A stretch of 64,000 nt of DNA from Dipteris shenzhenensis. Lineage: Eukaryota. Within the stretch, counting starts at the first letter, position 1. Each line of letters starts with the position of its first letter. The stretch is taken from NCBI GenBank assembly GCA_047967505.1, contig CM106538.1. The stretch is one strand, 5' to 3'. Made by a program: the position numbers and the translations under genes. Shown piece after piece: positions 24,413-47,400 of the stretch. Under the pieces are notes generated by a model. The model saw only the letters and a program-made list of their open reading frames with translations. It searched no databases and was not told where the DNA came from.

Positions 24413-24697
24413 AGGTACGATCCTTTGCAAAGGCTTTACTTTAAGTAAGTATAAGTCTACCTAGTCAAAGTATCCTACTGATTAGGGACAAGCACATAGG
24501 CTAAAAGCACACCGATTCATATTTTCTTACATTCATGCTGCATGGTGTATCAGAAGGTACGATCCTTTGCAAAGGCTTTACTTTAAGTAATTATAAGTCT
24601 ACCTAGTCAAAGTATCCTACTGATTAGGGACAAGTACATAGGCTAAAAGCACACCGATTCATATTTTCTTACATTCATGCTGCATGGTGTATCAGAA
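24413..24697. repeat. 142-bp tandem duplication
   Basis: Near-identical copies starting at 24413 and 24555. Confidence 0.92.
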
Positions 24698-26329: not shown

Positions 26330-27800
26330 CCAGGTACTCCCTCCCTCCCTCTCGTCCCTCCCCTCCTGCTTCCCATCCCCTCTCCTCCCGCTTCCTCTCT
26401 CCCCTCCCTTCCCCTCTCCTCCCTCCTATCCCTTGCCCTCCCCTCCCCCTCCCTTCCCCTCTCCTCCCCCTTCTTCTCCCGCTTCCTCTCTCCCCCTCCC
26501 TTCCCCTCTCCTCCTGCTTCTCCCCTCCCTCCTCGTGCTTCCTCTCCTCCCCTCCCCCTCCCTTCCCCTCTCCTCCCCCTTCCCCTTCCCGTCTCCTCCC
26601 TGCTCTCCCTTCCCCTCCCCTTCCCCGCCTCCCCTTCCCCCGCTCCGCCGTCGGCCCCTCCCTTCCCCTCCTCTCCCTCCCCGTCGGCCGCTCCCTCTCC
26701 CTTCCCCTCCTCTCCCTCCCCCTCCTTGCCGGCCCCTCCCTCCCCATCGTCCCTCCCTTCCCTTCCCTATCGTCCCTCCCTGCCAGCCCCTCCCTCCCTG
26801 CCATCCCTCCCTTCCCTTCCCCGTCGTCCCTCCCTTCCCCTCCCCCTCCCCCTCCACCTCCCCCTCCCTGCCGGCCCCTCCCTTCCCCGCCTCCCCTCCC
26901 CGTCATAGGCGGGAGGGAGGGGGGCTGACATGAGGGGGAGGCAGGGAAGGGGAAAGGGGGGGGCCGATGGGAGGGCGGGGAAGGGGGAGGGGGGGCAAGG
27001 AGGGCACGGGGAAGGGGGAGGGGGAGGGGAGGCAGGGAAGGGGGAGGGGAGGCGTGGGGAAGGGGGAGGGGAGGCGTGGGGAAGGGGGAGGGGAGGCGGG
27101 AGGGCATGGGGAGAGGGGGGGGTTAACCTCCCCACCTGCTGCGCACACAACAGGTGGGGTGGGGGGGCTAATAATACCACAAGTGGGGTGGGGGGGGTTA
27201 ATAATACCCCCCCACCCACACCTATTGCATGCGCAGCAGGTGGGGGGGAAATTTTGTGGGGTGGGGGGGGGCGAGGTGGGGAAGGGGGAGGGGAGGCGGG
27301 AGGGCGAGGGGACGAGAGGAGGGAGGGGGAGGGGTAAACCCCCTGTTGCACATGCAACAGGTGGGGTGGGGGTAATAATACCCCCCACCCCACCTGTTGC
27401 GCATGCAACAGGTGGGGGTAAACCCCCCCTCCCTCCTCTCCTCCTGCCCTCTCACCCCCTCCCTGCCCTCCCTTCCCTGCCTCCCCTCTCCCTTCCCTGA
27501 CCGTTAACCCCCCCTCCCTCCTCTCCTCCCGCCCTCCCGTTGCCCCCTCCCTCTTCCTTGCCTCCCCTCCCGTTGGGCCCCTTCCTTCCTCCCTCCGCTC
27601 CCTTCCCCTTTCCTCCTGCTTCCCCCCCTCTTCTCCCTATTTTTTAAGGCGGGGAGCGGTGAGGAGGATGGGAGGGGAGGGAGGAGGGAGAGGAGAGGGC
27701 AGTGGAGAGGGAGGAGGCAGGCGGGGAGGTGAGAGGGAGGATGAGAGGAGGTAGGCGGGGAGGCGAGAGGGAGGAGGGAGAGGAGGCAGACAAGGAGGCG
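26330..27800. repeat. Alternating C-rich and G-rich low-complexity tracts around a palindrome cluster (27130-27430)
   Basis: Strong strand-skew switches; CCACCTGTTGCGCATGCAACAGGTGG-type palindromes. Confidence 0.85.
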
Positions 27801-28367
27801 AGAGGGTTCTACAGCTATTCCCAGAAAGAGAGCAAAAATAACTCCTACTCCACGTGTAGATCGTTCAAGTGCAGGTTATTTAAAACCAGGCAAAAAATTG
27901 GATAGCAATGAATGAGAGCATCTGCAAGAAGAAGATACAAGTCTCGAAGATTTTTCTATAAGTGTGGCAGACTTACATCCTCTAGAGGATGACGGGTACA
28001 TTTGGGGATTTTCACAATTTAGTGTGGCCAAAATGCTTATTGATCGAGCTTCGTTGTTCACAAATCAAAGAAAGCTAGAGAGAAGCTAGATAAGACATTT
28101 GCACGCAAATTATATGAAGATACGAGGAAAACAAGAACTCCAGTTGCTACTAATATCACTCTTCATCCTATGGCATTTAAGAGACTTCAAGAAGATGATC
28201 CTACATTGCCTGATGTCACATTTCAAAAGCGCATGGACTTTCTTGATGCCTTTGAGAACTTTAGGAGTGACTTTGTTCATGGAGAGGCTTTGTAACAAAG
28301 CCGATATGGGACTGACATCGAGAAGAGACACATGCTGGCAAAGAATAGATTCTTGGAAAGATGCAGG

Positions 28368-29531
28368 TGTTGGCTCTTTCCTACTGCTTCCGTAGGAAGA
28401 GCTGGGTATTCTATGTTGCAGGGTTCCGAGGCTTTTTGTCACCTACAGATATATTGGGTTTGTCGTTGTAGTATATGTGTAGCTTAGGACCTCGAGTCGT
28501 GTTCCGGTGAGAGACGTAGGCTTAAGTGTGGTGAGTAAACAAAATGCAAGCATGTGTAAAAGGCACGTAAACCATTGTTGTTGGGGTAATGAAGGCTTTC
28601 GCCTTCATTGGGGGTTGTAGGGTTTAGGAGGAGTTTAAGGGTTCAGAAGGAGGATCCAGGGTTTAGAAAGAGTTCAAGGTTAGAAAGAATTCCAGGGTTT
28701 AGAAGGGGGTTCCAAGGTTTAGAAGGAGTCCAGGGTTAGAAGGAGGGTCCAAGGTTCAGAGTAGAGTACATGGTGGAGAACTCGTCTCCCTCGTAGATCA
28801 TTGAGTTTAAGGGTTTAGGAAAGCATAGGAGTGGGAGAGGAAGAAGGTGTAAGAGCATGGGTGAAGTAAGAGAGAGAGGATGAAGGAGGAGGAGGGAAGA
28901 GGAGGAGGGAGAGGGAGGAGAGAGGAGGAGGAGGAGGAGGGAGGAGGAGGAGGAGGAGGAGGAGGGAGGAGGAGGAGGAGGAGGAGGGAGAAGGAGGGAG
29001 GAGGAGAGGGAGAGGGTGGGTTGCAGGGTTGGAGGAGAGGGGAGAAGGGTTGCAAGGTTAGGACATGCTTTTGGACGTGCAGTGCAAGGAAGCATGGACA
29101 CTTGAGACAAATGCTTGGAATACCAATGTAGACTCAACACAATGCCCCAAGAGTGTGGGCTTCATTCCATTATGGGGTATTTATACAAGTTGGAGAGCTT
29201 CCCTATCTGCATGTAACACAAAGTCGTATCACAAAGTTGTAACACAAAGTTGTATCACAAAGTTGTAACACAAAGTTGTGTCACAAAGTTGTAACACATT
29301 CTCTCTCTTCATGTAGAAGATGTAACACAAAGTTGTTACACAAAGTTGTTACACAAAGTCGTAACATAAACTTGTAACACAAACTTGCAACACAAAGTTG
29401 TTACACAAAGTCGTAACATAAAGTTGTGTCTAGAAGTTGTAACACAAAGTTGTAACACCTTCTCTTTCTTCATAAGTTCATGTTGGCACAGAGTCAATTC
29501 TTCATAAGTTCATGTTGGCACAGAGTCAACA
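28368..29531 (-). repeat. 3' LTR of the Athila-like element
   Basis: Direct repeat of 42645-43761. Confidence 0.95.
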
Positions 29532-32500
29532 TACCCCCGGATCCATTTTATTACCGGTCCTCGGCTTATTGCGATCACGTACCTGGGTTGCCATGTTTTT
29601 AGTCCAGTGGCTGTGGAACTTGTGTCGTGCCAGTCGATCCTGCTGTAGAGCCTTAGCACCATACAATTTTTGGGCAGTTTCCAGGTAGCCTGTATCCACC
29701 ATTTGCTCAAACAGAGATATGTGGCGTGCCTCCAAGAAGATCACTCTTTGGTATAGTGGGCTTGTAATCTGAGCATCAATCCGTTCATTGGGATTAAAGC
29801 TGAGTGGAGGCAAATGGGAATCAAGGTAACATGGGACCTCCAAAATTAATGCTAATGTTTTGCAGAATATGGCACTTTGGCGAAGGAAGCGATCAATGTT
29901 GCCGCGCATTGTTTGTTCATGCTGCTGAAGTGCTCGGATCATGGCGCCTTGGATAGTCCATTCTACACCAGAGTAGGGTTCGATCATTGGCCAATTAATG
30001 ACTCGATCTTTAGCCAAAGTGTGTATGTTGGCTTCCCATCTTTTACGTCGTGAAACTGCATAGAACTTGGGATGGGTTCTGAGACATGGAGGTGCCTGTA
30101 AGTACTCCTTTAAGAAGCTTACATCAAAGAGCTTGGGACGGCGCCAATCAGGTTGTGGATCCAATTTGCTAATCCAACCTTCACTTATTTGGTGCTGACG
30201 AAGGTTGGTAGGAAAGTTACCCAGGGTCCATCCACCGCGAGTTTTCATATCAGGATATTTGCTCCAAAATTCCTTGATGGGGTTACTGGGAAGTGGTATC
30301 TCATCAAAATCATACCCATCATTGGAACTTGGCATGGGTGTACGAATTGGATTATCCGGATCCTGATATTCAAGATCAAATACTGCATCATTTTCTGCTG
30401 ATGGCAGCACCAGAAGTGTCGGAGGTGATGACGGGGCCGGGAGAGGAAGCAGGGGACATGGGGGAGAAATATGGCTGAGTGATAGTGGCGGAAGGGGGAG
30501 CAGAGGGGAGGGGGGGAAGAAATGGGCAAATGGTTTGAGCAGCTTGGTAATCCTCAAGGGTAGGATTAGCAAGGGAGGGGAAAAAGCTAGGTGTGAGGGG
30601 CTCGTAAGTTTGTGACTGTTGGGTAAGTTGAAAATGGTGAGAGGCATGAGCAAAGAGACGATGGAGGGAATAGATGTTAGGATGGAGCTCGGGGAAGGTT
30701 AAGAGGGTGACAGCAGCAAGGGGAAGTGAGGTTATGATGTTGGTAGAAAGAGTGGTTAGATATGGGAAGTTGGATGTGAGATAGGCCTTGTCATCGTCCG
30801 ACACTTCTTTTTGCTGGTGCGATGGAATGATCAGCTGCATGGGTTGGATGTCGGTTATGTCATGCCGTGCAAATAATAGGGATGGCCTTTGTAGCAATGG
30901 CAACAAACCTGCAATAACCCTGAGGGGAGGACTACCCATGAGGCAGACATATGCAAGGAAAGCATCCGTCCTGAGAGAGATAAACCCGGCATGTGTAGAC
31001 AGGCAGAAGATATTCTTCTCATCTTCAGACAAGTCTTGGCAAATTATGCGCAGGGTTTTAATCCCGATGGATCGTTTCCAGTCGATTGTTGGATGAGCAG
31101 ATATGATCTTGAGTTGGAGTTGCTTCCATTGGATAAGCACGCGTGCATGGAGGTGATCTTCCATTTGGAGAGCAGCCACAAGCTCTTCACACACCACGGT
31201 TGTGCATTGTAGTGGGCCGTCATTGGTGTTGTCTTCCAATGCCTCATTGTTGTGCACTAGCAATTGGAGTTCAAGCTTGGAGATGGCTATTTTTTGGGAG
31301 TGCATCTCATTCATCTTTTCTTTGTACTGATGGTAGATGCTTGTGTATGCCTCTTTAAGCTTTTTCATTTGCAAGGTGACCTTTGCCTATTGAGGAATGT
31401 CTTCAGTGGTATTAGACCATTGGTCCAAGAACTGGGCTTGTAAAGTGCTGGCCTCTTGAACAGTAGCAAGTTGGTCTTTTAAGAGTCGGCATTCCCTTGT
31501 AAGCTCATCAATGCTAAAGGCACGTACTACCAAAGATTGTTGCATGTCTTCAAGCTTGTCCTTGCAATCCTGGAGCTCTTCTTCTTTGTGAATGAGAGTG
31601 AGTCGAGCTTGTGCCACTTCCTCTGTTTGTTGCGCATGTGCAGTTGTCAGGGAGTTATAGGAGGTCTGTAGGATTGCCATTGCTTCTACTGCCGCAGTCA
31701 GCTGTGTTTGACTTTGGTGGAGGTTGGAGGTCACATCCCTTACGGCCTTCTCTTGAGCTTGGAGAGCCTGGTTCATGCGCACTTCTTCTACCTCCTTCTC
31801 ATCTATCTGTGCCCGAAGTGCCTTGACCTCTATGGCGATTGCCTGGAATTGGTCTTCGATTTCTGATGCCATGCGTCTGCCTTTCCAATTCTCTTGCATA
31901 TGCTTCCTTAGCCAAGCTAGTGAAGAGTTCTGACATTTGGATCATTTGGCTAGCTTGATGCTGGAGAATGACAGATGATGATGAGATCTGGCGATATTGC
32001 TGATACAAGTGGTGCCCATGTAGCCATCCCGAGGGTTTTGTAGTACTTGGGGGAGGTTGTTCCAATGGCATTTCACTCCCTTGTGGACAATAGTCATACT
32101 GCTGATCTGGCACGAGCTCTCCTTGGGGCTCATCGACTGGCATGACATCGATGGGCGGTTCGAGTGCTGATGTGGTCTCAAGCTCTGGTGCTGATCGTTC
32201 CTCAGGTTCGGGTGCCAACCTTGTCTCGAGCTCGGGTTGGTGCTATTGGGGGAGACTTAGTGGTTGCAGTTGTGCACCGAGTTGAAGCATTTCCTGGGGC
32301 AATTCTGCAATTCTGCTTTCCAGAATAGGTACTTCTGTTAAGGCATCTGTACTTATCAATGTGATAGCTGGAGCAGTTGATGATGGCTCCCATACTGGTG
32401 AGAAGGGTATGTCCAACTCCTCAATTGGCTTTGGAGACTGTGGGGTAGAGTCATTTCTCTTTCTTGTAGTTCTTTTTTAATGATGATAGCCAATAAGTGC

Positions 32501-33330
32501 GGGATTTTACATTTCTGGCCTAAAGAACCATCGAGTTTTTTGGTAAAGAAAATGACGAAGTGTTGTTTGAGCTTCCTACTCAGCAAAACAAATGTGCGGA
32601 GTGGAAGGGAGCGTTCCTTGCCGTTCTTTATTCCCAGGATGGTGGATAGAAATTGTGCTGCTTCCTTGAGGCGAGGGTCAAGGATTGTGCGAAGCAAGAT
32701 GCCATCTCTATGGATCAGGGTACCCTTGGTGAGGAGAGACTGTATTTCGATAAACTTTGCATCCACAGACCTTTTAGGGTATTCACCACCTTGCTTTGGC
32801 AGAGAGAAAGCCCTTTGAATGACTGTACTGTTGAGGATAATGTTCAGTGGGCTCTGCTGTACAGTGATTGTACCGTACTTGCCATCCGTTGCATTGCTGG
32901 CGTAGTAAGAGTGGAGAAAGTCCTTGATGTAGGTGGTCATGATAGGATTGTCCTCCAAGGATTTGAGGCTCTCATGCAAATGGCCTAGACCCCGTTGCTC
33001 TAAGTAAGATGATGCTTCCTGGGAAAGAGCATAAGTCGAGGTGGGTGGCCAGACAAGTTCCAATGATTGGGCCTTGTTAACGGTTGTGTATGCCGGTTGT
33101 GACTGGGGTTGCATTTGCTTGGACATGCACTGAATCTTCTTCGGAGCTATCGCTTTGGACCATGAACGCCTGTGGTCTCCGTGGTTGAGAGGATGTAGAT
33201 GGCTGCGAACTTTGGAGGGGGTCCCGTGGTTGAGGCGGTGGGCTCTTTCTGTGCATCCTCTTGAGTGGCGGCATCTTTTCTGAACCTGCATCCATGTACA
33301 TGTAGTGTACCATTGTTCATTACATTGATT
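29526..33330 (-). pseudogene. Extra 3' ORF(s) of the Athila-like element, frameshifted, including a coiled-coil segment
   Basis: Sense-strand ORFs tile the interval between pol and the 3' LTR: 33077-33313, 32356-33291, 31799-32218, 31387-31899, 30388-31374, 29526-30653. Confidence 0.7.
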
Positions 33331-33670
33331 GGCATGCTTGTATGACCTTTCTGTGTGTGTGTGGGAGAGAGATCCCTTTTTAAAAAAAAATAAAAAATAA
33401 AAATACAGCTTTTGAGAGTGTGGAATGAAAGTGTGTGGTACAATTATTCATGCAATCATCTATGTGTCTAAGCGAAAGCGTGTGAGTGCACGTGACCTAG
33501 TAGCTAAGTAGGGACTAACTATATGCTTTTTTTGCTGGGATTTTCATAGGGCAGCTAGAACTCATTCACCAATCCTGAGCTCTAGGTAAAATCGATTGAG
33601 GCTACCTATATGTGCGAAGACGTACATATGCAAGTGAGTGCTCGTGATACAATCTAATCCTAATCTAATC

Positions 33671-36349
33671 CTAACTAAGGAAGACTTGGTTTCCCAAATC
33701 TTCGTTTTTATCGGGGATGGCTCGCGTGTTGACGTAGTAGCGCTTCAATCGGCTCCCGTTTATTGTTGTGTTGAATTGGACTCCATCTAGTGTTTCAAGT
33801 AGCAGAGCTCCAATGGGATTCATCTTTCGTACTCGGTAGGGTCCTTGACCTAGATACTTCAGTTTTCCCTTGTGTACTTTGGCATTGTATAACAGGACTA
33901 AGTCGCCTTCCTTGATGTCTTTAGCTTTCAGATTCCTGTCAAACCATGCCTTTCTTCGACGTTTTTCTGTTGTCATGGCATGATAAGCGACTAGTCTTGT
34001 CTCTGTATGCTTTTCCAACTGACAGAGGCTTTCTTTCAAGGACTCATGATCACCCATGCGTTCCTGTATTGCGATGCGCAGACTTGGTATTACAAATTCA
34101 AGTGGGACCACGGCTTCAAGGCCGTACACCAATTGAAAATGTGTGTTCCCTGTACTGACCTTGAATGTGGTTCTGTATGCCCATAAGGCTGCATTCAGTT
34201 TCTCTGCCCAATCAGAACGCTGTGGTTCTACTACCTTGGTGAGGATATTGCATATGATTTTATTTGTGGATTCTGCTAGTCCATTCCCTTGGGGGTAGTA
34301 GGGTGTGCTTTTTCTATGAATGACCATGAAGCCAGACAAGAGTTCTTGGATTACCTCATTGACAAAATGTGTGCCTCTATCCGACACAATTTCAAGGGGG
34401 CATCCGAATCGGGTGATCACATGTTCGTACAAGAATCTTGCTGTGCTTTTGGCATCTGCCTTTCTGACTACTTTAGCTTCAGCCCATTTTGTAAAGTAAT
34501 CAGTGGCCACAATGATGTAGCGTGCCTGTGTTCCTTTTGCTGCTGGATGTATGGGACCTACATAATCAATCCCCCATTTTTCAAATGGCTGTTGTGCAAC
34601 AACTGTTGTTAGGGGATTGAAGTCTTTGTGTTGTGGTTTAATAGTTCGTTGGCATACATCACAGCCTTTTACATATTCATAGGCATCTGCCCACAGTGTT
34701 GGCCACCAGTAGCCTGCGAGGAGAACTTTTCTTGCTGTGGCTTCTCCTTGGAAGTGTCCTCCTGCAATGCCTTCATGGACTTCACTCAGGATTGGCAGGA
34801 TCTCATGAGGCATTACACATCTTCTTAATATCTGGTCCTTGCCCATCTTGTATAGTTGTCCTGCAATGAGTTGATATGGTGCAGCCTTTAGAATCAATTT
34901 TCTGGCATCTACTGCTTTCATGTCAGGGGGTGGTCTTCCTGCCATCAAGTACCCAATGATATCTCCACACCATTCTGGAACAGCATCTATTTGAAATAGT
35001 GTGGCATCTGGTAAGTCATCTTCTATTCCAGTGGCTTCTTCTCCAGTCTTGACTTGAGACATGTGATCGGCAATGTAGTGTTGGGCACCTTTGCGGACCA
35101 CAATTTTGAAGTTGAATTCTTGCAGCAAGAGGAGCCATCTGGTTATTCTTCCTGTGGTACACGGACGGTTCACAAGATAAAGCAATGCTTGATGGTCGGT
35201 GTAGAAGACAAAATCATTTGCAAGGAGATAGTGCCAAAATTTCTTTACACTATATACCATTGCTAGGGCTTCTCTTTCTGTGGTTGTATAGTTGATCTCT
35301 GCATCATTGAGTTGTCGACTGGCGAAGTAGACGGGGTAGTCTTTCTTATGTTCACCAGGTTGACAAAGCACACTCCCAATTGCATACTTGGATCCATCAG
35401 TATGAACATGAAAATCAATATCCCAATTGGGAGATAGAAGGATGGGTGCTGTGATTAGGCGCCACTTTAAAAGCTCAAAGGCTTGGTCGCACTCTTCGGT
35501 CCATAAGAACTCCACTAATAATTTGTAAAGTGGTCGAGCTATCATGGCATACCGCAATATAAATCTTCTATAATAGCCGGCATGTCCCATAAAGACCTGT
35601 ACACCTTTGGAATTTGTAGGAGGCAATTCCATGATGATTTTGATTTTGTCCATGTCAGTTGCAATCCCATGTTGAGAGACGATGTGTCCCAAAACAACTC
35701 CGTGGGTGACCATGAACTGGCATTTTGTTGGATTTAGGGAGATGCCATACTCCCTGCATTTGATTAATACTTCTTCCAGACATTTGAAGTGGTCCTGTTT
35801 GGTTGAATGGATGCACAAATCATCCAAGAACACCTGTAAAAACTTATTCAAGAATGACTTGAAAGCTGTGAACATGACTCGCTGGAATGTGGCTGGGGCA
35901 TTACAAAGGCCGAATGGCATGACTCTATATGCAAAAATACCCCATTTTGCAGCAAATGCTGTTTTTGATTGGTCTTGAGGAGCAATTTGTACTTGGTTAT
36001 AGCCACTGAAGCCATCCAAGAAGCTATAAATTTCGGATCCTGCCACCTTTTCCAACACTGTTTCTGTTAAGGGTAGGGGGTAGTGATCCCTAATTGTGGC
36101 GGCATTCACATTTTTCAAGTTTACGCATATTCTGAGCTTCTTGTTGCGTTTAGGCACAATGACAATGGGTGAAACCCAATCAGTGTGCTCTATCTCATAG
36201 ATGAATCCGGCATCTAGGAGTTTTTCCAGCTCGTCATAAGCCATGGTGCCATATTTAGGATTTGTGCGATAAGGGCCACATACCTTAGGGCGAGCACCTT
36301 CCCTTATAGGGATCGTATGAACTGCCACTTCTGGTGAAATTCCTTTCAT
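33671..36349 (-). CDS. pol: Pol: reverse transcriptase, RNase H, integrase (892-aa open segment)
   Basis: FLDGFSGYNQV, MPFGLCNAPATFQR, VFLDD; HTDGSKYAIG, TEREALA, YTDHQAL; H..H/CDVC, WGIDYVGP, VSDRGTHF, GLAESTNK, GPY. Confidence 0.95.
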   Translation of the reverse strand: MKGISPEVAVHTIPIREGARPKVCGPYRTNPKYGTMAYDELEKLLDAGFIYEIEHTDWVSPIVIVPKRNKKLRICVNLKNVNAATIRDHYPLPLTETVLEKVAGSEIYSFLDGFSGYNQVQIAPQDQSKTAFAAKWGIFAYRVMPFGLCNAPATFQRVMFTAFKSFLNKFLQVFLDDLCIHSTKQDHFKCLEEVLIKCREYGISLNPTKCQFMVTHGVVLGHIVSQHGIATDMDKIKIIMELPPTNSKGVQVFMGHAGYYRRFILRYAMIARPLYKLLVEFLWTEECDQAFELLKWRLITAPILLSPNWDIDFHVHTDGSKYAIGSVLCQPGEHKKDYPVYFASRQLNDAEINYTTTEREALAMVYSVKKFWHYLLANDFVFYTDHQALLYLVNRPCTTGRITRWLLLLQEFNFKIVVRKGAQHYIADHMSQVKTGEEATGIEDDLPDATLFQIDAVPEWCGDIIGYLMAGRPPPDMKAVDARKLILKAAPYQLIAGQLYKMGKDQILRRCVMPHEILPILSEVHEGIAGGHFQGEATARKVLLAGYWWPTLWADAYEYVKGCDVCQRTIKPQHKDFNPLTTVVAQQPFEKWGIDYVGPIHPAAKGTQARYIIVATDYFTKWAEAKVVRKADAKSTARFLYEHVITRFGCPLEIVSDRGTHFVNEVIQELLSGFMVIHRKSTPYYPQGNGLAESTNKIICNILTKVVEPQRSDWAEKLNAALWAYRTTFKVSTGNTHFQLVYGLEAVVPLEFVIPSLRIAIQERMGDHESLKESLCQLEKHTETRLVAYHAMTTEKRRRKAWFDRNLKAKDIKEGDLVLLYNAKVHKGKLKYLGQGPYRVRKMNPIGALLLETLDGVQFNTTINGSRLKRYYVNTRAIPDKNEDLGNQVFLS

Positions 36350-36370
36350 CTCTTTGTATGACCATGCTAG

Positions 36371-38279
36371 CTAGTCACGGTATTCCATTAGGAGGTCTTT
36401 GAGTTTGATTTCATCTTCTTGACAGAGCTGTTTCCCAATGAACACCAACTTTTCTTCCTCCCCTTCAAGGGCGAGGTTTATTGTGCGTGTTTTTGCCGGT
36501 CCCTCATAGATTGGAGGTTCTCCAATGCTATCGGTTTCTTGAACTTCAGATTCTCTGATTGGTCTTGGCATTGCTATTGGTGCACTGCCACTTGTATAAT
36601 TCTTAAAGTATTCCGGCACTGTCGGTCTCTGATGGGGTTGAACTAGCCTGAGATGTGTCATGAGTACTGGGTGGCATAGTTGCATTTAGTAATTTGTTAG
36701 GCTCTTCTTTTCTTTCTTTTTCTGAAGTCGTTTGATCGAGCTTCATCCGCACATGTGGCTTATATTTCCGAAACTTCTTACGTTGGGAACTATGGGGTAA
36801 CTTTTCCACTGGTAAGGTGTTTCCAAGTAAGGGTTCATGTGCTACACATACTCCTTCCAATCCTTCAGGGGACCATTCAAGAGGTGGTGGTTTTGACTTT
36901 GAGGGGACTGCCTTTGCAAGATACAATTCCACAATCCGTGTTTGGACTCGTTCGAATTCATTGAAGTGCTCGGCCTTGGCTCTTCTGCGATTTCCTCCTG
37001 CAGCTTTCTTGCGGGATCGTCTGCTATTATGCAACTGTGGAGGTTCAACTTTTGGGAGCTCAACTGCCATTAGGGCATGCAGAATGGCTAGGTCATTATC
37101 AAAGATTTCATCTTCAATTTCAGCATTCGCAGCCTCTGTTTCAAGGTCCCAAGGAAAATCTGAGTCATCATTGGTATGGGTACCTTCTTCAGGTTCATTA
37201 TCCCATTCGAGGTCAGCCATAAAGAAAGGCATCTCTAGATCAATTGGTTCTTCATGTGTCGGTGGAGGATCGACCTGTAGTGTGTTAACATCTATCTGTG
37301 AGAAGATGGGGTCTAATGAATGGCAGTTGTCGATGGTTGCCAATGTTTGTATCCAGTTATTGACATTGCTTTGTAAGTCACCTGCTATGGCATGCTGTTG
37401 CAAGGGATCTGATTTGCTCGAGATTGTCGTGGAAGATGTGTCATCCAATGCTCTAGGAACAATGGGTTTAATAGCTCTTGTCCCCACATTCACCCTAACT
37501 GCATTGTCTCGATTCTGGATTGTCAATCTATCAGTGCCCCAGTCATGGAGGACTGATGCTTCCCGTAACCAAGGACGTCCCAGTAAGATTTGATAGGATT
37601 TTTTGGGGAGATCCAAGATTGTGAATTGAAGGGAAAAGCGGACTCCTGCGATCTTTGTGGACACGCCATTCACTATTCCCAAGGGTTTAGCCCGTGAATC
37701 ATCGGCAAGGCGTATGTTGAAATTAGCCTTTTGCATTGGTGGGAGACCCCATTCTTCGTAAAGCTCCTTTGATAGGACATTGACACCTGCTCCACCATCC
37801 ACTATGGCTTGGATTTCATTATATGCCTTGTGGATCAAAGGCACAGTGATGTTGCGTATGTCATCTTTCTCACCCATCCGCACAGGGATATCATCAATGT
37901 CGTTCATAGGTGGAGGGGGATTTGTGAGTTCAATCCATCCTTTGAAACTCTCCCAGAGATTGGGACAATTTCGTAAGAGGATTCCAATGGGAATGGACAC
38001 AGGGCAACTCAGTATGCTAGAGAGTGCAGCTCCTTCAAGTTGACGTGGCGGAACATTCTGTTGTGGAGTCTGTTGTTGGAACAAAGGCTCGAGTACAGTA
38101 TCAATACTTTGTGGGGCCAAGTCATGGAGTGGGGCTTGAGCTTGTTTCTGAGTCTCAAATTGAGCTTGTTCATTTTGGACCCATTGCTGAAGTGCCTGAA
38201 AATGAGCCTTCTCCACCTCTGCATTCCGGAATGGAGCTTCTTTTATTCGAGGCTCGGGAGTTGATGTGGATGAACTCGG
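36371..38279 (-). pseudogene. Aspartic protease and spacer; in frame with gag after a TAG, frameshift near 36650
   Basis: AIVDGGAGVNVL and ILLGRPWL in ORF 36603-38216; ORF 36371-36685 is in frame with pol apart from one TAG. Confidence 0.82.
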
Positions 38280-39911
38280 CTACTCATTGCTTGGCGGAGG
38301 TGGAGGCACTTGTGCTTTCTTTCTCAGAAGTCGCTTCGGTTGGATTGGAATGATAGGGTCCTTCGTGGCCGCTTTCTGTTGGCGTGTAATTACATTGATA
38401 GGTTGTGACTTAGACTTGCCAGATCCAAGACTTTGATGGTCCACCCCAATGATGCCGATGGGGACGTCAGGCTTAACCTCTGTTTGTTCTGGAACCTTAT
38501 TTTTCATGGGACAATCCATACAGGCATGTCCTATGCCACAATCTCTGCAGAGTGGTTGGAAAGTGGCTGGGCTACCGCGATGAGGGCACTCTGCGATTCT
38601 ATGATTTTCTCCACAACCGTAACACTTGATTGGTGCTCGAAATGTGTTGGGTCGCACTTGATTTGCATACACTGGTATTAGACCCTCTGCACCTTCTACA
38701 TAGTACACTGGGTACTCTGCTTCATACTCAAATAGCGAGTCTACTTCCTCGGCTTGTAATTGATGTATGGGAACTGCCTGAGGAGCTGGATTTGGTGCTC
38801 TTGGATACGGTCGTGGATTCGGATTCCTGAGTAGTTGTGGGACTTGTGTCCGAACGGGAACAGGATTTAGTCTCGCAGCTGGGGGCGCTTGTGCAAGTGC
38901 CGATTGCCTGTATACTGGCATGGGTGCCGCTTGGTATTGTGGTGGTTGAGGCGGATTGTTGCGCATGTTGAAGATGCAACTGGTCTCATCATGGCCGCCG
39001 ATGACACAGATATGGCACCACAACCGTGGCGGTGGATTTGCTTGTGCAGTGATTCTTGCTCTTAGGACTGGGCATTCATTTGCTGTATGATTGGCCAAGC
39101 AGTGTGGGCACCAGACATTTTCTCGCCGTGGATATGTTTGAGTTGGCGGCTGAGACAAGTGAAGTTTTTGATCCATGGCCTGCATCATATCTTCTTTCAG
39201 CTTCAAGGTCATGGCCTCGAGGCGATCTTCATTGGATGTTTCGACAGAGTCCTTTGATTTACCTTTTTTCGAGCGCTTATCTCGTGTATTTGATCTGGCA
39301 TCATCACTGCTAGTGTCTGAATCTGTCATGCCATCTTCGATGTCAATGGCTGCCGCATGAGCAGCACTGAATGTTTCATAGCTACTTATCTTTTTCATAT
39401 CCTTGCGGATTTTCTTTCTTAGACCTGCTATGAACCATGCCGTGAGGTACTTTGCATCTGGGCATGGGTCACATTTGGCGATCAATCTCTTCATCTTTCC
39501 CAGGTATGTGCGTACATCTTCCCTCCGGCCTTGTTCGATCTTGCTGAGTTGGAGAGCGGGATCATCTTGTAGCCTCTCTGTTTGAAAGCGACGTTTGAAT
39601 TCGGTTTGAAGTAGGTCCCATGTAGCACGTTCTTCCACAAGAAGGTCGAGGTACCATTCTGACGCCTCATCAGTTAAGGCCATTGGAAACCAAGCCACCT
39701 TAGTTTCATGGGATTGATCACCACCTGCTCGACATGCGGCATCAAAATGTTGGAGGAAGCGAGCAGGGTCTCCCCTACCATTATATTTGGGAAGTTCCAG
39801 TTTTCCCAAGGGGCGTCGGCCGTGATTGTTGTGATTTCGTCGATTGAAGAAGTTGTCAGCCTCGGCATCGAGCTCGATGTCCCCATCATGCTCAGGACGG
39901 CGTCCAGCCAT
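38280..39911 (-). CDS. gag: Ty3/gypsy Gag, 543 aa
   Basis: LPKYNGRGDPARFL, ASEWY, IEQGRREDVRTY, WFIAGL; several Cys/His knuckles. Confidence 0.88.
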   Translation of the reverse strand: MAGRRPEHDGDIELDAEADNFFNRRNHNNHGRRPLGKLELPKYNGRGDPARFLQHFDAACRAGGDQSHETKVAWFPMALTDEASEWYLDLLVEERATWDLLQTEFKRRFQTERLQDDPALQLSKIEQGRREDVRTYLGKMKRLIAKCDPCPDAKYLTAWFIAGLRKKIRKDMKKISSYETFSAAHAAAIDIEDGMTDSDTSSDDARSNTRDKRSKKGKSKDSVETSNEDRLEAMTLKLKEDMMQAMDQKLHLSQPPTQTYPRRENVWCPHCLANHTANECPVLRARITAQANPPPRLWCHICVIGGHDETSCIFNMRNNPPQPPQYQAAPMPVYRQSALAQAPPAARLNPVPVRTQVPQLLRNPNPRPYPRAPNPAPQAVPIHQLQAEEVDSLFEYEAEYPVYYVEGAEGLIPVYANQVRPNTFRAPIKCYGCGENHRIAECPHRGSPATFQPLCRDCGIGHACMDCPMKNKVPEQTEVKPDVPIGIIGVDHQSLGSGKSKSQPINVITRQQKAATKDPIIPIQPKRLLRKKAQVPPPPPSNE

Positions 39912-40499
39912 GTTGGGGCGAGGAGGAGTTCAAGGAAGTTGTTGAATCTCAGGGGGGAATTCGGGGTAGAGGATTGGCGGGGGCGGTTGTTGCAGTGGAG
40001 TTAGTTGCGGATTGGGCGAGTGTTGGAGTCGAAGTCGTTGGCCGGAACGTAACTGCATGCAGAGGGTGCGTGATTTGCCAAGGGTATCGCTACCCCAAGG
40101 GCGGGTGTGGAGGTGGTGTCGTTAGGAGAGTTAGAGTGATGTTAGTTGGTGTAGGGACCGTCGTGTTAATAAGGTGCCTAGGATTTTCCTACGTGTGTAG
40201 GAAAATGTGCCAGTGCAGACGGATCGTTAATCGGAGGTCGCGGCGTGAAAATACGAGTGAATTAATGCAAAATGAGGCCCACACGGGGGCGCGAATGAAC
40301 GTGTGCTAGGGATGCCGAAATGGTGTGCAATGGGCTGGAAAAATACCCCGTAACGTGGTGTTTCCGTGTGTGAAATCTGGGTTCAAACGGGGTTCAATTT
40401 GGGTCCCAAACGGATGAGTTTCGAGGGGTTAAAGGAGGGGTAAATTTGGCGTTTGGGGGGCTCCTAATGGTGGTGTGAATGGACTTTAAGTCCAACCGA

Positions 40500-40865
40500 G
40501 GGGTTGAAACCAAGTGACTCTAGTTAGACTAACTAACCTAGATCCTCCCAGTTACTGTAACTGGGAGGTTTAACTAACTGTAGTTAGATACTAACTGAAG
40601 AGTTAGTCTAACCTAACTGAGGGTAACTAAACTAACCTAACCTCAGTTACTACTAACCAAACCTACGTAGCTAATCTAACTGAGGGCAACTTGACGAACC
40701 TAGTTGGCCTAACCTAACTAACCTAACCTAACTGTGGTTAATACTAACTAGTCTAGGGTTAACCGACCTAACCTAACCTAACCTAACCTAGGTTAACCAC
40801 TAACCTAACTACAGTTAGCACTAACCTAACTATGGTAAATCTAACCTAGAGTTAATTTTAGGTTA

Positions 40866-40896
<31 letters not shown>

Positions 40897-42120
40897 GGGT
40901 GGTTCTGAGGGGGGGCTGCCCGACGGCGGCGCCCTGGGGGGCTGCCCGAGGTGGCGCAGGGGCGGGACGGGGGTGCGCGGGGGGCGGGGTGGGTGCGGGG
41001 GGTGGGAGGGGGTGCGAACGCGGGCGCAGGGCGGGGGAGGGCGGGGGGTGCGTGAGGAGAGGGGGTGGGGCGGGGGGGCGGCGCTGTGTGCGCCGCCGCG
41101 GGGGCGGGGGGTGCGTGAGGAGAGGGGACGAGGTGGGTGCGGGGGGTGGGAGAGGAGAGGGGGCGGGTTGAGTGCGGGGCGCAGGGCGGGGCGGGGGGTG
41201 AGAGAGGAGAGGGGGCGGGTTGAGTGCGGGGCGCGGGGGGGAACGTGCGAGGGGGAGGGCGGGGGCACCATCGCAGGGCGACGGTGGCTGCGGCGGGGGT
41301 GGCGAGCGGCGGGGCGGGGATGTGCGAGGGGGAGGGTAGGGGCGCCGCAAGGCGGCGGTGGCTGCGGCGGGGGTGGCGAGCGGCGGGGCGGGGGTGGCGC
41401 GCGGGCGGGGTGGCGTAGGAGGGCGCGGGCGGGGGCGCCGCCGCAGGGGGGCGCTGCGCGGGGCGGGGGTGGCGCAGGAGGGCGCTGCGCGGGGCGGCGG
41501 CGCGGTCGCCACGGGCAGACGGGCGGGCGCCGCGGGCGGGCCGGGGGGGGCGCTGGGCGGGCGGCGCTGCATGCGCCGCCGCGGGGGGGTGGGGGGTCGA
41601 GAGGGGGTTTACAGAGAGGGGAGAGGGGGGTAAGGGGGAGGGGGTAAGCGGGAGAGAGAGGAGAGGGGGCGGGGTGAGAACGAGGGGGAGAGAGGAGAGA
41701 GGGAGTGAGAGAGGGGGTGGGAGAGGGGGAGGGGGAGAGGGGGAGGGGGGAGGTGGTAGTGGAGGGGGAGAGGGGAGGTGGTAGTGGAGGGGGAGGGGGA
41801 GAGGGGGAGGTGGTGATGAAGGGAGAGGGGGAGGGGGGAGGTGGTAGTGGAGGGGGAGAGGGGAGGTGGTAGTGGAGGGGGAGGGGGAGAGGGGGAGGTG
41901 GTGATGAAGGGGGAGGGGGAAGAGGGGAGGTGGTAGTGGAGGGGGAGGGGGAGAGGGGGAGGTGGAGATGAAGGGGGAGGGGGAGAGGGGGAGGTGAGGG
42001 GGAGGTGGAGATGAAGGGGGAGGGGGAAGAGGGGAGGTGGTAGTGGAGGGGGAGGGGGAGAGGGGGAGGTGGAGATGAAGGGGGAGGGGGAGAGGGGGAG
42101 ATGGTGGTGGAGGGGGAGGG
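40500..42120. repeat. Low-complexity 5' leader: (TAACC)n-like tract, T run, CpG-rich block, G-rich minisatellite
   Basis: AACCT repeats 40500-40870; ~24 T at 40873-40896; GC-rich 40900-41600; GGGGGAGGTGGTAGTGGA units 41740-42120. Confidence 0.88.
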
Positions 42121-42624
42121 GTAAAAGAGCAACAAAAAAAAACTGAAAGACGGAAATTGAAAAGCAAGGCGAAGTGGTTACCTGACGCTCTCCAAGTCTT
42201 TCTCGATGGAACGGGATTGTCACGGAACAATGGACGGTGGGTGGAAGGCTAGGTCATCGCTGCGAGAAGGGCTCGATGTCACTTACATGGCGAGGATAGG
42301 AGTAAGGGGGCAGTCGATGGAGAGGGAGGAGTGTCTTGCGTGGGGCTCGGAAGGAGGAAGAGAATGGAGGCAAAAAGTGAAAGATGAAGAATGAGGGGGG
42401 GTGGAGTAGGTTTTTATAGGTTTGGATTTTAGGTTTAGGGTTTAACCCTAAACTCTTCTCGAGCCATAACTCTTTATGGAGAGCTCGGTTTGCCTTTCTG
42501 TAAAAAGATAAAATGATCGTAATTGAAAGCTCTACGCAACCGTGTCCACTACCTAGCCTAATTGTACATCATGTGGCTTTTATACCTACCTATGCATGTT
42601 TACTCGCTACTTGAGACGCTAGTC

Positions 42625-42642
42625 TCCCCGGCAACGGCACCA
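42625..42642 (-). promoter_or_regulatory. Primer-binding site, tRNA-Asp type
   Basis: TGGTGCCGTTGCCGGGGA, 2 nt from the 5' LTR; one mismatch to the Athila-type TGGCGCCGTTGCCGGGGA. Confidence 0.85.
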
Positions 42643-42644
42643 AA

Positions 42645-43761
42645 TGTTGGCTCTTTCCTACTGCTTCCGTAGGAAGAGCTGGGTATTCTATGTTGTAGGG
42701 TTCCGAGGCTTTTTGTCACCTACAGATATATTGGGTTTGTCGTTGTAGTATATGTGTAGCTTAGGACCTCGAGTCGTGTTCCGGTGAGAGACGTAGGCTT
42801 AAGTGTGGTGAGTAAACAAAATGCAAGCATGTGTAAAAGGCACGTAAACCATTGTTGTTGGGGTAATGAAGGCTTTCGCCTTCATTGGGGGTTGTAGGGT
42901 TTAGGAGGAGTTTAAGGGAGGATCCAGGGTTTAGAAAGAGTTCAGGGTTAGAAAGAGTTCTAGGGTTTAGAAGGGGGTTCCAAGGTTTAGAAGGAGTCCA
43001 GGGTTAGAAGGAGGGTCCAAGGTTCAGAGTAGAGTACATGGTGGAGAACTCGTCTCCCTCGTAGATCATTGAGTTTAAGGGTTTAGGAAAGCATAGGAGT
43101 GGGAGAGGAAGAAGGTGTAAGAGCATGGGTGAAGTAAGAGAGAGAGGATGAAGGAGGAGGAGGGAAGAGGAGGAGGGAGAGGGAGGAGAGAGGAGGAGGA
43201 GGAGGAGGGAGGAGGAGGAGGAGGAGGAGGGAGAAGGAGGGAGGAGGAGAGGGAGAGGGTGGGTTGCAGGGTTGGAGGAGAGGGGAGAAGGGTTGCAAGG
43301 TTAGGACATGCTTTTGGACGTACAGTGCAAGGAAGCATGGACACTTGAGACAAATGCTTGGAATACCAATGTAGACTCAACACAATGCCCCAAGAGTGTG
43401 GGCTTCATTCCATTATGGGGTATTTATACAAGTTGGAGAGCTTCCCTCTCTGCATGTAACACAAAGTCGTATCACAAAGTTGTAACACAAAGTTGTATCA
43501 CAAAGTCGTAACACAAAGTTGTGTCACAAAGTCGTAACACATTCTCTCTCTTCATGTAGAAGATGTAACACAAAGTTGTTAAACAAAGTCGTAACATAAA
43601 CTTGTAACACAAACTTGCAACACAAAGTTGTTACACAAAGTCGTAACATAAAGTTGTGTCTAGAAGTTGTAACACAAAGTTGTAACACCTTCTCTTTCTT
43701 CATAAGTTCATGTTGGCACAGAGTCAATTTTTCATAAGTTCATGTTGGCACAGAGTCAACA
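42645..43761 (-). repeat. 5' LTR of the Athila-like element
   Basis: Direct repeat of 28368-29531; adjacent to the PBS. Confidence 0.95.
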
Positions 43762-46700
43762 GCAGGTTTGAGCCCATTGATGGGCAACCCTTTTATGAAG
43801 CTTGCAGGATTGCCCTTGATGAGGGAAGAAAAGGAAACTTGCCACAAATTGAGTGGATGGAAAAGTTTCAATGGGTCATTTGTCATATATGCATATTTAA
43901 CAATGACTCAAAGTACATTCTAGAATCAGAAAGGCTGCATTCTGCTCCATTTAGGTTGAAAAAAGCCTCTTCTCTTTCTAAGATCTTGATAAAGGCAAGG
44001 GAGTTATGGATGGGCTGTGGAAAGCCACAAACAGTGAAGGGTAGGAGACCTACATCTGAGTACATGGCAAAGAGGACTCGGCTCTATAGATGCTTGAAAG
44101 TTGTTGTAAGCAATACGCAAGGCATCAAGTAATAAGGTTGAGGCAAAGGATTTCAACACCGCCATTGCAAGATACAGGGATGTTACTTGCATTGTCTTCC
44201 ATGAGGACTCAGTGTTTCAGAGCATGGTGGATGTTTGCCAAGCATATGAAACAGGGAAAATATCCTTCGAGGCACCAGAGCACACTACAACTCAAAGGAA
44301 AGAAATAAAGAAACCGATGTCTATTGTTTGGTGGAGAGCATTAAGGTTTGTTCCAGATGCAATAATAGCAGAAGTATGCAAGAAGATCCTAAGTGGTGAC
44401 TACTTCTTTGGAAAGAAGAGCAAGCATAGCAACTTGGATGAAGTGGTCACCCGAATGATTCAAAGTGAGGCTACTCTCTCGGCACTATTATTTTTATTGA
44501 AATTTGATGATGAGTTAGCTGGCAAGAATTGATGTGGATAAGAAGAATTAGCCTAGGTCAACTCCTTGATAAGACATGGGCTAGAAAGTGGTTGGCTTCA
44601 ATGGATGCAGATGCCACACCAACAAAGGATCTAAGAGCTAAAATGCCAAAGGTTGTTGAGATATAATATATGGACATCAAGAAAAAGGCCTTGGCACAGT
44701 CCACTGCCCAAGGTAGAGCAATTGGTGGTTTAGATGATGGTTCTCCATTCAGCTTCTCCTATGATATCCTGCTATCAGATAATGATACAAAATTTGCACA
44801 AATGGCATTGATACAGAGCATTTCATAACAATGAGTGGTCATGCTTGGGAGAAGCCATGCGTATTTTTCATAGATGAATTGCAAGACCTTGCAGTGTCAC
44901 GGATAGTTGAACTTATGCGGTTTATCGTAGAAGGTCCTATGGCAGATAAGAAAAGATCAATGTTGGTCCTGTTCATGATAGAATCACAAAGGGATGCCTT
45001 GTATGCGAGTTTGACATCTGCATTTGGGTATTTACTTTCACAAGTATACCATGGTATAGTCCTACGCAATCATATAACTATCTTGGAAGGCACTGCCATT
45101 CAAGTCTTGCAGCCTTTCTTGATGTGCTTCTTATCCACCAGGGGTGGTGGCAATCTAATCAAAATTCCTTTAAGGACTCTTGAGCTTCATTACTTTGAGG
45201 ACAATAAGATTAAGCTTGATGCAACAATGGTGGATTACAGAAAGCTGATGGATCTTGATGTGATACTAGAGATGACAAAGAATTTATTGAATGATGGGTG
45301 GGAAGTAGCATTATATCGAATGGGTTTTGCTACTAAGAAATTGCTATGCCAAGGTAGAAATGTAAATGTCATTGATACCCCCCATCAAATTGAGTTCTTT
45401 GACACATATTACAGTTGCACTACCTTCTTTGAAGAGGAAAATGTCAAAGAAGAGGGTAGTGAGAAAAATGTCGAAGATGAGGGTAGTGAGTTTGAGGGTG
45501 ATGATTTTAGCTCAGGTGATGATGAGGATGAAAGCTCTGCATCCGATGACTTATGCCAAGAAGAAATCCACACAAAGAATAAGGGTGATCAATTGTCAAC
45601 TAGAGTTAAGGAGGTTCCACTCATCATACAGGAAGGCTCGGGGTAGCAAGAAGTAGTAGTTCAGCACGTCACAGGAAAAGGTAAGGCTAAAGAGGTGGAA
45701 GCACTTCCCTTGAAATTAAAAGTGAGGAAGGCACCCTTAATCTTGGGTGAAGGACATGCAAGTGGATCAAGAAAGGAAGCCTTACTCAAAGAAGGTATGG
45801 ACGAGGCAAAGCATGACCAGGAGGAGTTACCAAGAGGCATAGATGGTTCTTCAACCATGATCTTACAGACTCCAGAGTAGCCTACTAGTCAGGAACCTAG
45901 TAGCCAGGTCCCTACTCACCAAGAACTTGGTCATGAGACTCTAGAACAGCCTACTAGTTAGGTGCTTAGAACTGAAGAGCAAACTACTAAGGACCTTGCT
46001 ACTAAGACTCCAGTCTTAGAGCAGCCTATTAGTCAAGACCTTGGTAGTCAAGGGCCTAGCATTGAGGACATTGGTACTAAGTAACATGATGGCTGACGGC
46101 CTTGTAATCACAAGTTTTGAACTTCTATGTAAAGCGAATATCTAATAAAAAGTTTACTACTTTTTTGATTTCTTTACTCTCATTATTGTGTATAAAGATT
46201 GTTTATGAGGTCCATTTTATATTTAATGGTGTATTTCAAACTTTATGTCAAATGTATTTTTATAGTTAAGGGTGTTTTTTAATACCAAGTGAGGTGTATA
46301 TGTACACCACTTACACATAAAAGGATTTATCTACACTACCTTTATAAGGGGTTTATGTACACCACCTTTCTAAAAGAAATGGTCATAAAGGTGTGTGCAC
46401 ACCACTTATACATAAAGGTGTTTATTTACACCACCTTTCTAAGAGAATTGGTCATCTATTATTGGTCATCTATTTGATGTTCTTAGGTGATAGTAGCTCA
46501 ATTCACAAGAAGTTATGAAGATGTTTATGTAGAACACCTTTGTAAGAGATTTTTGTGAAGTTATGAAGATGTTTATGTAGACCACCTTTGTAAGAGATTT
46601 GGTTATGCATTGATGTTCATAGTACTTAATCATCAAATCTTTTGTTTTGAGTTGTCAAATCTAGTTCAAAAAACAACATTACTAGTATATTCAAAATTTT

Positions 46701-46849
46701 TGGACTCTTTTTTAGTCCATTTCTCAAATTGGACTTTACACAAGTCCAAAAATTTTGAATCGTGTGTTAATAGAGATCTACCATATTGCTTTCATTGTGC
46801 TCTCACACCTCTTGCAAGATGCATCTATTCTATCCTACAGGTTCCTACA

Positions 46850-47400
46850 GCAATGGCAGTATTGCTCAAAATTATGCCTGAAGATTATGATCATGTTGTT
46901 ACCACATTGAAAAATCTTCCTAATCCTACTCTTGAAGGTCTTATTACTGCTCTTCAAGAAGAAGAAAGGCACAAGGAACTCCGGAGAGGCAATGACATAG
47001 CCTATGCCATCAAAACTCAAATGGGCAAGCTTTCACCTTGCAAACATTGTGGGAAGACTAATCACCTCTCAAAAGATTACTTCAAGATCAATCCTTGCAA
47101 ATATTGTGGCAAAAACAATCACCATGAAAAGTTTTGTAAGGCCAAAAAAGAAGCAATTACAAAACCAGAAACTGCCAATTTACTTTCAGTTGATGTCCCT
47201 CCACAAGATGAGGCCTCTTATGAAAATTATGCTTTTTGAACCATCTCCATATATGCTCCAGATCTTTCTTTTATGTTGAGTCAAGGTACTGGATAGTCCT
47301 CCAAAATGAATGGAATAAACTATTGTGTTCTTTGTAAACATCTCCATATATGCTCCAGATCTTTCTTTTATGTTGAGTCAAGGTACTGGATAGTCCTCCC
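46850..47400 (+). pseudogene. gag: Gag-only element E, probable 3' part: gag C-terminus (to 47239) and truncated 3' UTR
   Basis: AMAVLLKIMPEDY...double zinc knuckle...YAF* starts right after the end of the F LTR; downstream sequence matches the element C 3' UTR; no 3' LTR found. Confidence 0.78.

Follow-up and report, generated by a model that had tools for sequence, protein, structure and literature searches.

A decayed second gene opposite a DUF7869 transposase pseudogene in Dipteris shenzhenensis and its possible methyltransferase-like fold

We analysed a 64-kb stretch of Dipteris shenzhenensis DNA (64,000 nucleotides from GenBank assembly GCA_047967505.1, contig CM106538.1; hereafter the window) and find in it the second gene of a cut-and-paste DNA transposon of about 13.2 kb. 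This gene, here called ORF2, lies opposite a transposase pseudogene of the DUF7869 family, and its copy in the window is dead: it is split by a nested retrotransposon, has three frame breaks and carries at least three stops, while the transposase carries seven. The domain that precedes its acidic tail is most likely, and plausibly, a circularly permuted amino-methyltransferase fold. The fuller explanation that we favour combines several elements, namely a second transposon gene, this fold, lost methylation, binding to DNA or to a partner, and kinship with accessory proteins of algal transposons. Taken jointly, we regard these as an evenly balanced proposition.

ORF2 is the second gene of a DNA transposon

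The window holds eukaryotic transposable elements nested together, comprising copia and gypsy gag/pol fragments, solo long terminal repeats (LTRs) and microsatellites. The element that carries ORF2 is a DNA transposon whose borders can be read directly. It occupies 28,599 bp, or about 13.2 kb once the nested LTR retrotransposon is left out, and its termini read 5'-AA...TT-3'. Its parts are as follows.

18170-46768, no strand assigned: whole DNA transposon, from the match of its terminal inverted repeats (TIRs), a flanking 4-bp direct repeat and palindromes near both ends
18166-18169 (left) and 46769-46772 (right): target-site duplication (TSD) AATA, 4 bp, perfect copies read directly from the flanks
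18170-18196, plus strand: left TIR, 27 bp, inverted match to 46768-46742
46742-46768, minus strand: right TIR, 27 bp, inverted match to 18170-18196
18490-18690: left subterminal 59-bp tandem units with the 16-bp palindrome GGTGTATAGATACACC (at 18520 and 18638)
46293-46432: right subterminal GGTGT-N6-ACACC palindromes (copies at 46293 and 46417, shorter variant at 46390)
18859-21468, minus strand: transposase pseudogene, a single frame with 7 in-frame stops, from translation
19543-20064, minus strand: DUF7869 core with ...ITIDGMDQ... and ...LVGHTHEDIDQ... motifs (Pfam PF25273, E 9.1e-32)

The TIRs are identical at 25 of 27 positions (92.6%), with an E-value of 6.8e-6 in a comparison of 1.5 kb with 1.4 kb. 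The palindrome GGTGT-N6-ACACC has four matches in the window, all at most about 480 bp from the transposon ends, and 0.06 would be expected by chance. ORF2 is encoded on the plus strand and the transposase on the minus strand, so that the two genes are divergent. A preliminary description of this DNA had set the gene in a transposon, and this setting is borne out by its position inside an element that is bounded by TIRs and a TSD, bears palindromes, and has the transposase pseudogene on its other strand.

Structure and decay of the window copy

ORF2 is interrupted by an LTR retrotransposon that is no part of the gene, and the stretches on either side of it can be divided into four parts.

28368-43761, minus strand: nested Ty3/gypsy LTR retrotransposon, from its LTRs, target duplication and coding content
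27916-28367, plus strand: ORF2 N-terminal part, a frame-1 piece (27916-28086) and a frame-0 piece (28044-28367) overlapping at an 11-base direct repeat
43767-44798, plus strand: ORF2 middle part, in three frames (43767-44123, 44128-44526 and 44550-44798)
44849-45463, plus strand: ORF2 C-terminal domain, 205 amino acids, from the family alignment and a predicted permuted amino-methyltransferase-like fold
45464-45880, plus strand: ORF2 acidic tail and C-terminal extension, from the reading of the frame and the alignment of a relative

The retrotransposon has LTRs at 28368-29531 and 42645-43761 that are 95.1% identical over 1164 columns, each reading TG...CA, and it is flanked by the 5-bp target duplication GCAGG (28363-28367 and 43762-43766). 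Its coding content comprises gag, protease, reverse transcriptase-RNaseH-integrase and extra open reading frames 3' of the integrase. When it is excised with one copy of its duplication, codon 28365-28367 joins position 43767 in the same frame, and the restored junction reads ...AKNRFLERCR followed by FEPIDGQPFYEACRIAL, the sequence after FLERCR being FEPIDGQPFYEA. As the join is codon to codon in one frame, the central observation of the preliminary description, that the two sides of the insertion belong together, is correct. It had gone on to read the whole as one restored frame, which holds across 28367/43767 but is contradicted elsewhere by in-frame stops and three downstream frame breaks.

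Every string that it had quoted, DKTFARKLYED, PVATNITLHP, RFEPIDGQPFYEA, YRKLMDLDVILEMTKNLLNDGWEV and GFATKKLLCQGRNVNVID, can be found in the window together with the acidic tail, but the downstream strings are spread over three different frames rather than one. Nor does NQRK(L)DKTFARKLYED form a single frame, as had been proposed: NQRK belongs to 27916-28086 and DKTFARKLYED to the other frame, at 28044-28292, and the two can be joined only if the 11-base direct repeat (at about 28072-28093) is a duplication. The N-terminal part also has an in-frame TAA at 28293-28295, and the ATG at 27908 lies in a third frame that stops after 17 codons. Past the insertion, open frames run over 43764-44129, 44110-44532, 44535-44825 (with a stop at 44664) and 44786-45646, and the middle part, which holds an IDGQPFYEA string, shows breaks at about 44125, at 44526/44547 and at 44800 beside the stop at 44664. 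Two relatives of ORF2 help to follow the gene through this damage. The alignment of one (P0011) spans two of the window's frames, and another (P0006) aligns through the TAG at 45644 as far as 45748, so that this TAG is probably a nonsense change. Read through, ORF2 has about 850 codons.

Other copies of the gene show what has been lost. We compared contigs from four of four other public sequencing runs over 43767-46100, and each of the four contained multiple diverged ORF2 contigs. In all four, the contigs are longer than the window copy by 2 bases at 44125, by 2+5 at 44526/44547 and by 4 at 44800, and have a different base at the 44664 stop. Being continuous across the three frame breaks, they identify ORF2 in the window as a frameshifted pseudogene. 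Over the same interval, 54 of the 80 differences from the contigs of one run (X1) have A or T in the window and G or C in the other copy, with window A against G at 31 and window T against C at 23. This excess suggests C-to-T decay of the window copy, as deamination of a silenced copy would produce. Eight public sequencing runs contain part of the stretch, none of them half of its words, and there is no RNA run among the eight.

Relatives of ORF2

The last 286 codons of ORF2 matched 12 proteins in a phmmer search of 1.84 billion representatives at E of at most 1e-3, with E-values from 1e-144 to 3e-4 and 32-87% identity over 59-269 amino acids. The ten matches examined were all unnamed proteins of Logan or ENA assemblies. 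Conservation across the family is observed in blocks that follow one another in the order FF(F/I)DELQDL, EGPMA, QRDAL, HG-VL, LQP, KPKHP, GW-VALY-MG and IID-P-RI-FFD; of KPKHP, the HP is missing from the copy in the window.

These matches bear on whether ORF2 is a gene at all. One could suppose that it is a set of chance open frames in decayed repeat DNA, as it has no Pfam family and no named homologue, the runs listed for it include no RNA, and stops and frameshifts crowd the copy in the window. We consider this very improbable. Twelve matching proteins make ORF2 more than a chance open frame: they are independent fragments in other assemblies, their identity and block-wise conservation are as given above, and the frame breaks of the window are absent from other copies.

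The family is real and very thinly sampled. A further profile search among proteins of near length returned only four proteins, all already found, and a search with the DGQ-bearing piece (122 amino acids) found no homologue among near-length proteins. Two scans of JGI metagenome contigs, together with prokaryote genome contigs and viral contigs, gave pattern matches only and no confirmed relative. In the ESM Atlas, the C-terminal 286 amino acids reached a best score of 0.82 with unnamed clusters and gave no lead.

A possible permuted methyltransferase-like fold in the C-terminal domain

The preliminary description had proposed a degenerate DNA methyltransferase in this part of the protein. The proposal gains some ground from structure, in that the neighbours of a low-confidence model are permuted amino-methyltransferases, and none from profiles at the sequence level. 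Structure prediction was limited by a shallow alignment, and the fold evidence comes from one AlphaFold model, model 2, which covers the 205 amino acids without the tail (pLDDT 51.5, pTM 0.51).

In Foldseek, the top match to model 2 was M1.HpyAVI (E 1.1e-3, TM 0.39, 203 columns), and lower matches included Mod of Mbo45V, M.BceJIV and MTA1. VIA-align, run independently of Foldseek against 48,161 PDB representatives, placed permuted amino-methyltransferases at 16 of the top 20 neighbours, with M.BceJIV, M.RsrI, M.MboIIA, MTA1, CcrM, M1.HpyAVI, MTA1c, a Mod subunit and M.PvuII at ranks 1-9. The neighbours cover about 150 of the 205 residues, with one permuted family dominant. A Foldseek search of a viral library with model 2 gave a mixed list (best E 2.2e-3), and model 1 had generic alpha/beta neighbours only in both Foldseek and VIA-align. 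The elements of model 2 follow the order strand-DELQ, helix, strand, helix, hairpin, variable part, helix, strand, helix, strand-ID, which is the order of the beta class. Model residue 1 pairs with residue 57 of M.RsrI and residue 22 of M.MboIIA, and DPPY occupies positions 65-68 and 30-33 of these chains. If the first nine residues align without a gap, the D of DELQ (model residue 9) would fall on the D of DPPY.

The residues expected at the active site are replaced throughout the family. At motif IV, PP[YFW] occurs in none of 11 family sequences, which read DELQ in 8 cases and NELQ, DELE and NQIK in one each; at motif I, FxGxG occurs in none of the five sequences that cover it, which read (A/Q)L(Y/N)x(M/T)G. 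It is from the replacement of the DPPY-type and FxGxG motifs that we infer a loss of methylation, and we take these results as moderate evidence of a permuted methyltransferase fold from which catalysis has been lost.

Several results weigh against this assignment. The motif-IV register just described derives from the ends of the aligned ranges, not from a residue alignment. Pfam, NCBIfam and PADLOC returned nothing relevant for six ORF2 pieces or 15 family members, and the family profile searched against PDB sequences gave a single irrelevant match (E 0.49). With hhalign, the family scored 0.25% against YhdJ alone and 0.1-0.2% against 15 YhdJ-like and 15 Bacteroidota N6_N4 alignments, level with the negative control; the positive control reached 100%. 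An unfiltered methyltransferase hidden Markov model (HMM) placed the window domain within the range of 3000 shuffles (rank 1140 of 2089 reported). In none of the sequence tests did the domain join the N6_N4_Mtase (PF01555) profile.

An alternative is that a weak model has returned spurious methyltransferase neighbours and that the domain is some other three-layer alpha/beta fold, Rossmann-like or derived from a P-loop protein, such as a remnant of an SF1 helicase. The string FFFDELQDL does resemble motif II of UvrD-type helicases, and hhalign selects exactly that stretch. The match is confined to this motif-II-like stretch, with a probability of 1.5-1.9% over 20-42 columns (P 0.026-0.033). A Walker A motif (GxxxxGK[ST]) is absent from the whole read-through, which places the helicase reading lower, and Pfam gave no helicase match; an SF1 (UvrD-like) helicase with DELQD as its motif II was on these grounds left unsupported. 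As to other alpha/beta domains more generally, the better model has neighbours that belong mostly to one permuted family and cover most of the domain. We judge this alternative to be unlikely and retain the permuted methyltransferase fold.

The N-terminal part and the ParB question

The preliminary description had also assigned the N-terminal part to ParB/DGQHR. Under this proposal, ORF2 would be a fusion of a DGQHR-like ParB domain with a methyltransferase, as in phages, plasmids and algal transposons, and its N-terminal approximately 250 residues would be of ParB/Srx type and would load on palindromes. The published record offers reasons to take it seriously. The same architecture and strand arrangement are described for Ectocarpus Sola1-1_Ec32 (PMC12477816), and in Bostrychia the ParB-domain accessory genes of Plavaka elements adjoin inverted-repeat arrays (10.1101/2025.02.11.637652). 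In the window, too, inverted repeats are arrayed in tandem between the transposase gene and ORF2, at about 22800-23400, and bacterial ParB-N6_N4 fusions were recovered for comparison.

The tests made here lend the ParB/DGQHR identity no support, be it from Pfam, NCBIfam, PADLOC or custom DGQHR and ParB_N profiles on the read-through. ParB_N (PF02195), NCBIfam DGQHR (TIGR03187) and DndB, and PADLOC had no relevant match among the six ORF2 pieces (E at most 1 or at most 10), nor did a PDB sequence search with two N-terminal pieces return anything relevant. As the candidate domain is cut in three, the profile tests used a read-through with an X placed at each break. A custom HMM built from 32 DGQHR proteins of bacterial genomes scored this read-through at -0.9 bits, among the shuffles (rank 180 of 1085 reported, out of 2002 searched, shuffles included). 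The hhalign probabilities were 0.3-1.1% against DGQHR and 0.06-0.3% against 30 chromosomal ParB_N domains and eight bacterial ParB-methyltransferase fusions. The best ParB_N alignment, which is non-significant (19 columns, P 0.2), has the register that would be expected, pairing ...IDGQPFYEACRIAL with the GERRxRA region. The same set-up gave 0.35% for DGQHR against ParB_N and hence no link between the two; because it is blind to this link, it tests membership of a family and not of a superfamily, and it could miss a remote relative.

The motif in the window copy reads I-D-G-Q-P-F-Y-E-A, that is, DGQP-F and not DGQHR. It has neither arginine nor histidine, so that a GxxRxxA-type motif is absent, and 'QRK' requires a change of frame. 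Further, about 370 residues separate DGQ from DELQ, as against about 100 between the corresponding points of the bacterial fusions. Twenty Bacteroidota loci considered as further ParB-methyltransferase fusions proved to be N-terminal SPPY methyltransferases lacking ParB. The ParB part is a guess at the level of a motif, which the literature makes reasonable and to which our tests give no support, and we regard such a fusion as possible and on balance doubtful.

Comparison with known systems

The closest parallel is with algae. Sola1-1_Ec32 of Ectocarpus (21.5 kb) is described, in a survey of Ectocarpus transposons from 2025, as carrying, on the strand opposite its transposase, an accessory gene for a protein of 1104 amino acids with ParB-like DNA-binding and N4/N6 DNA methyltransferase domains, and such accessory proteins opposite the transposase are reported from green and red algal transposons as well (PMC12477816). 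The likeness to our element lies in a giant DNA transposon with an accessory gene opposite the transposase and a methyltransferase-type domain at the C-terminus (PMC12477816), and in a 4-bp A/T-rich TSD as in Sola1. In contrast, ORF2 has no detectable ParB or methyltransferase family and its motifs are replaced, in a comparison made by description only, and the window transposase is known only as DUF7869. The TSD hallmark of Sola1 is given as AWWT (PMC3845634), which AATA, from a single insertion, fits at three of four positions. In Plavaka elements of the alga Bostrychia moritziana, PAG2 is reported to combine an N6-adenine DNA methylase with SET and PAG3 a ParB N-terminal domain with a 2OG oxygenase (10.1101/2025.02.11.637652). 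Here too, DNA-modifying and ParB-type genes travel in giant algal DNA transposons, and the array at about 22800-23400 is comparable with theirs. These elements belong to another, Plavaka/CACTA-like superfamily, and they divide the domains between two proteins in which the partner domains are different.

As enzymes, the best structural neighbours of our model are the beta-class N6_N4 DNA methyltransferases (M.RsrI, M.MboIIA, CcrM, M.PvuII and M1.HpyAVI), a group we consider together with the ParB_N-N6_N4 fusions. They share with it the order of catalytic strand, hairpin, variable region and a cofactor-binding strand-helix-strand that ends in an acidic residue; unlike them, ORF2 lacks profile similarity, reads DELQ for DPPY and YxMG for FxGSG, and has about 500 upstream residues against about 200. 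The bdelloid N6_N4 enzyme is stated to have had no eukaryotic homologues (PMC8885841, Rodriguez et al.).

Loss of activity in such domains has precedents. In DIRS1 elements the methyltransferase domain is described as inactive, with substitutions of catalytic and substrate-binding residues, and the same source treats METTL14 as degenerate and mentions ParB-linked methyltransferases in algae (PMC4738411, Iyer et al.). DIRS1 thus offers a transposon-borne methyltransferase-fold domain judged inactive, but its group is unpermuted and derived from PCIF1, it is part of the polyprotein of a retrotransposon, and its presumed role concerns RNA (PMC4738411). METTL14-type MT-A70 subunits have a permuted fold with a degenerate active site and are retained as binding partners; they differ from ORF2 in being cellular, conserved and single-copy and in serving RNA methylation, while ORF2 has no known partner enzyme (PMC4738411).

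Kolobok transposons carry as accessory genes KolX, RecQ (on the complementary strand) and nucleases, and are characterised by a TTAA TSD and 5'-RR...YY-3' termini (PMC9587614). A 4-bp TSD, such termini and a second gene that is sometimes on the other strand recall our element (PMC9587614), whose AA...TT ends fit that pattern. Its TSD is AATA and not TTAA, which does not fit Kolobok. With no match to P2X7 ballast, RecQ or a nuclease, and none in Pfam, identity of ORF2 with KolX or RecQ was rejected.

The transposase and other repeats

The transposase is of DDE type, and DUF7869 is the only family that it matched. In the ESM Atlas it neighboured DUF7869 clusters of molluscs, arthropods and rotifers (scores 0.94-0.95), and the literature searched held no mention of DUF7869 by name. 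Upstream of the core, a 48-bp tandem repeat (21451-21748; 6.2 copies, 96% matches) lies inside the open frame and encodes repeated ...SCVASDSN(R/M)LTGIEDL... units.

Between the transposase and ORF2 lie a foldback and GC-rich microsatellite blocks. The foldback (22587-23667, about 1.1 kb) contains about six tandem units of about 96 bp with nested palindromes, and its arms are (CCCTAAA)n at 22587-22793 and inverted (TTTAGGG)n at 23434-23667. The palindromes of the units read GGTTGG-ATATAT-CCCCCAACC and its complement, and TTGCACAAATCAAGAA...TTCTTGATTTGTGCAA. This foldback may have inserted separately, or it may serve the element as a binding array. The microsatellites are of the CCCTC/GGGAG type and recur at 26339-27806 (in the DNA transposon), 40841-42250 (in the retrotransposon) and 47394-47800 (outside both), and the long open frames rich in proline or glycine that they generate on both strands are spurious. 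An AT-rich stretch in the middle of the element (GC 0.28) has tandem repeats at 24413-24698 (142 bp x 2, 98% matches) and 25470-25838 (124 bp x 3, 92%).

At the left border of the DNA transposon, two 241-bp direct repeats of 95% identity (15558-15798 and 17933-18169) enclose a fragment of copia-type gag (16712-17611), and the right-hand repeat ends at the TSD (18169). This gag stretch has a second copy, of 85% identity, immediately beyond the opposite end (46850-47211). The gypsy family of the nested retrotransposon is also represented by a solo LTR at 2900-4018, in inverted orientation and 85-87% identical to both LTRs. Adjoining the inner edge of the retrotransposon's 5' LTR (minus-strand sense), the sequence at 42620-42644 reads TGGTGCCGTTGCCGGGGAG, which we take to resemble the tRNA-Asp primer-binding site of Athila-type elements.

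Proposed role and significance

We propose a model in which the roughly 200 residues before the acidic tail would form a circularly permuted amino-methyltransferase fold that opens with the catalytic strand and closes with the one that binds the cofactor, in the order found in beta-class N6/N4 DNA methyltransferases and in MT-A70. With D/N-E-L-Q in place of (D/N/S)PP(Y/F/W) and Y-x-M-G in place of FxGxG across the family, the protein would no longer methylate. It may instead serve as a module that binds DNA or a partner and recognises the element's own DNA, at the subterminal palindromes or at the internal inverted-repeat array. In a broader context, ORF2 would be a degenerate relative of the accessory proteins of algal Sola1 and Plavaka transposons that join ParB-like and DNA-methyltransferase domains.

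ORF2 is most likely a divergent and probably catalytically dead variant of a kind of accessory gene that is already on record. The possible novelty is a lineage, divergent in sequence and without the catalytic motifs, that is carried by a DUF7869 element. A bolder version would make ORF2 the founder of an unannotated family of catalytically dead ParB-methyltransferase descendants on DUF7869 (possibly Sola1) transposons that has kept sequence-specific loading on the subterminal palindromes and the internal inverted-repeat array and acts in self-recognition or anti-silencing, as a pseudoenzyme that would mark 'self' DNA for the transposase or shield that DNA from the host; this we think quite unlikely.

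As the copy in the window is dead, the practical meaning of this locus is small. As none of the sequence libraries used here detects the family to which it belongs, genes of this kind are probably under-counted. Accessory genes that could combine binding to a transposon's own DNA with chemical marking of it have only recently been noticed in giant transposons of algae. If ORF2 proteins are indeed conserved across species while their catalytic and cofactor motifs have been lost, binding would matter more to the element than methylation, and the ORF2 lineage would offer another, independent family for testing this.

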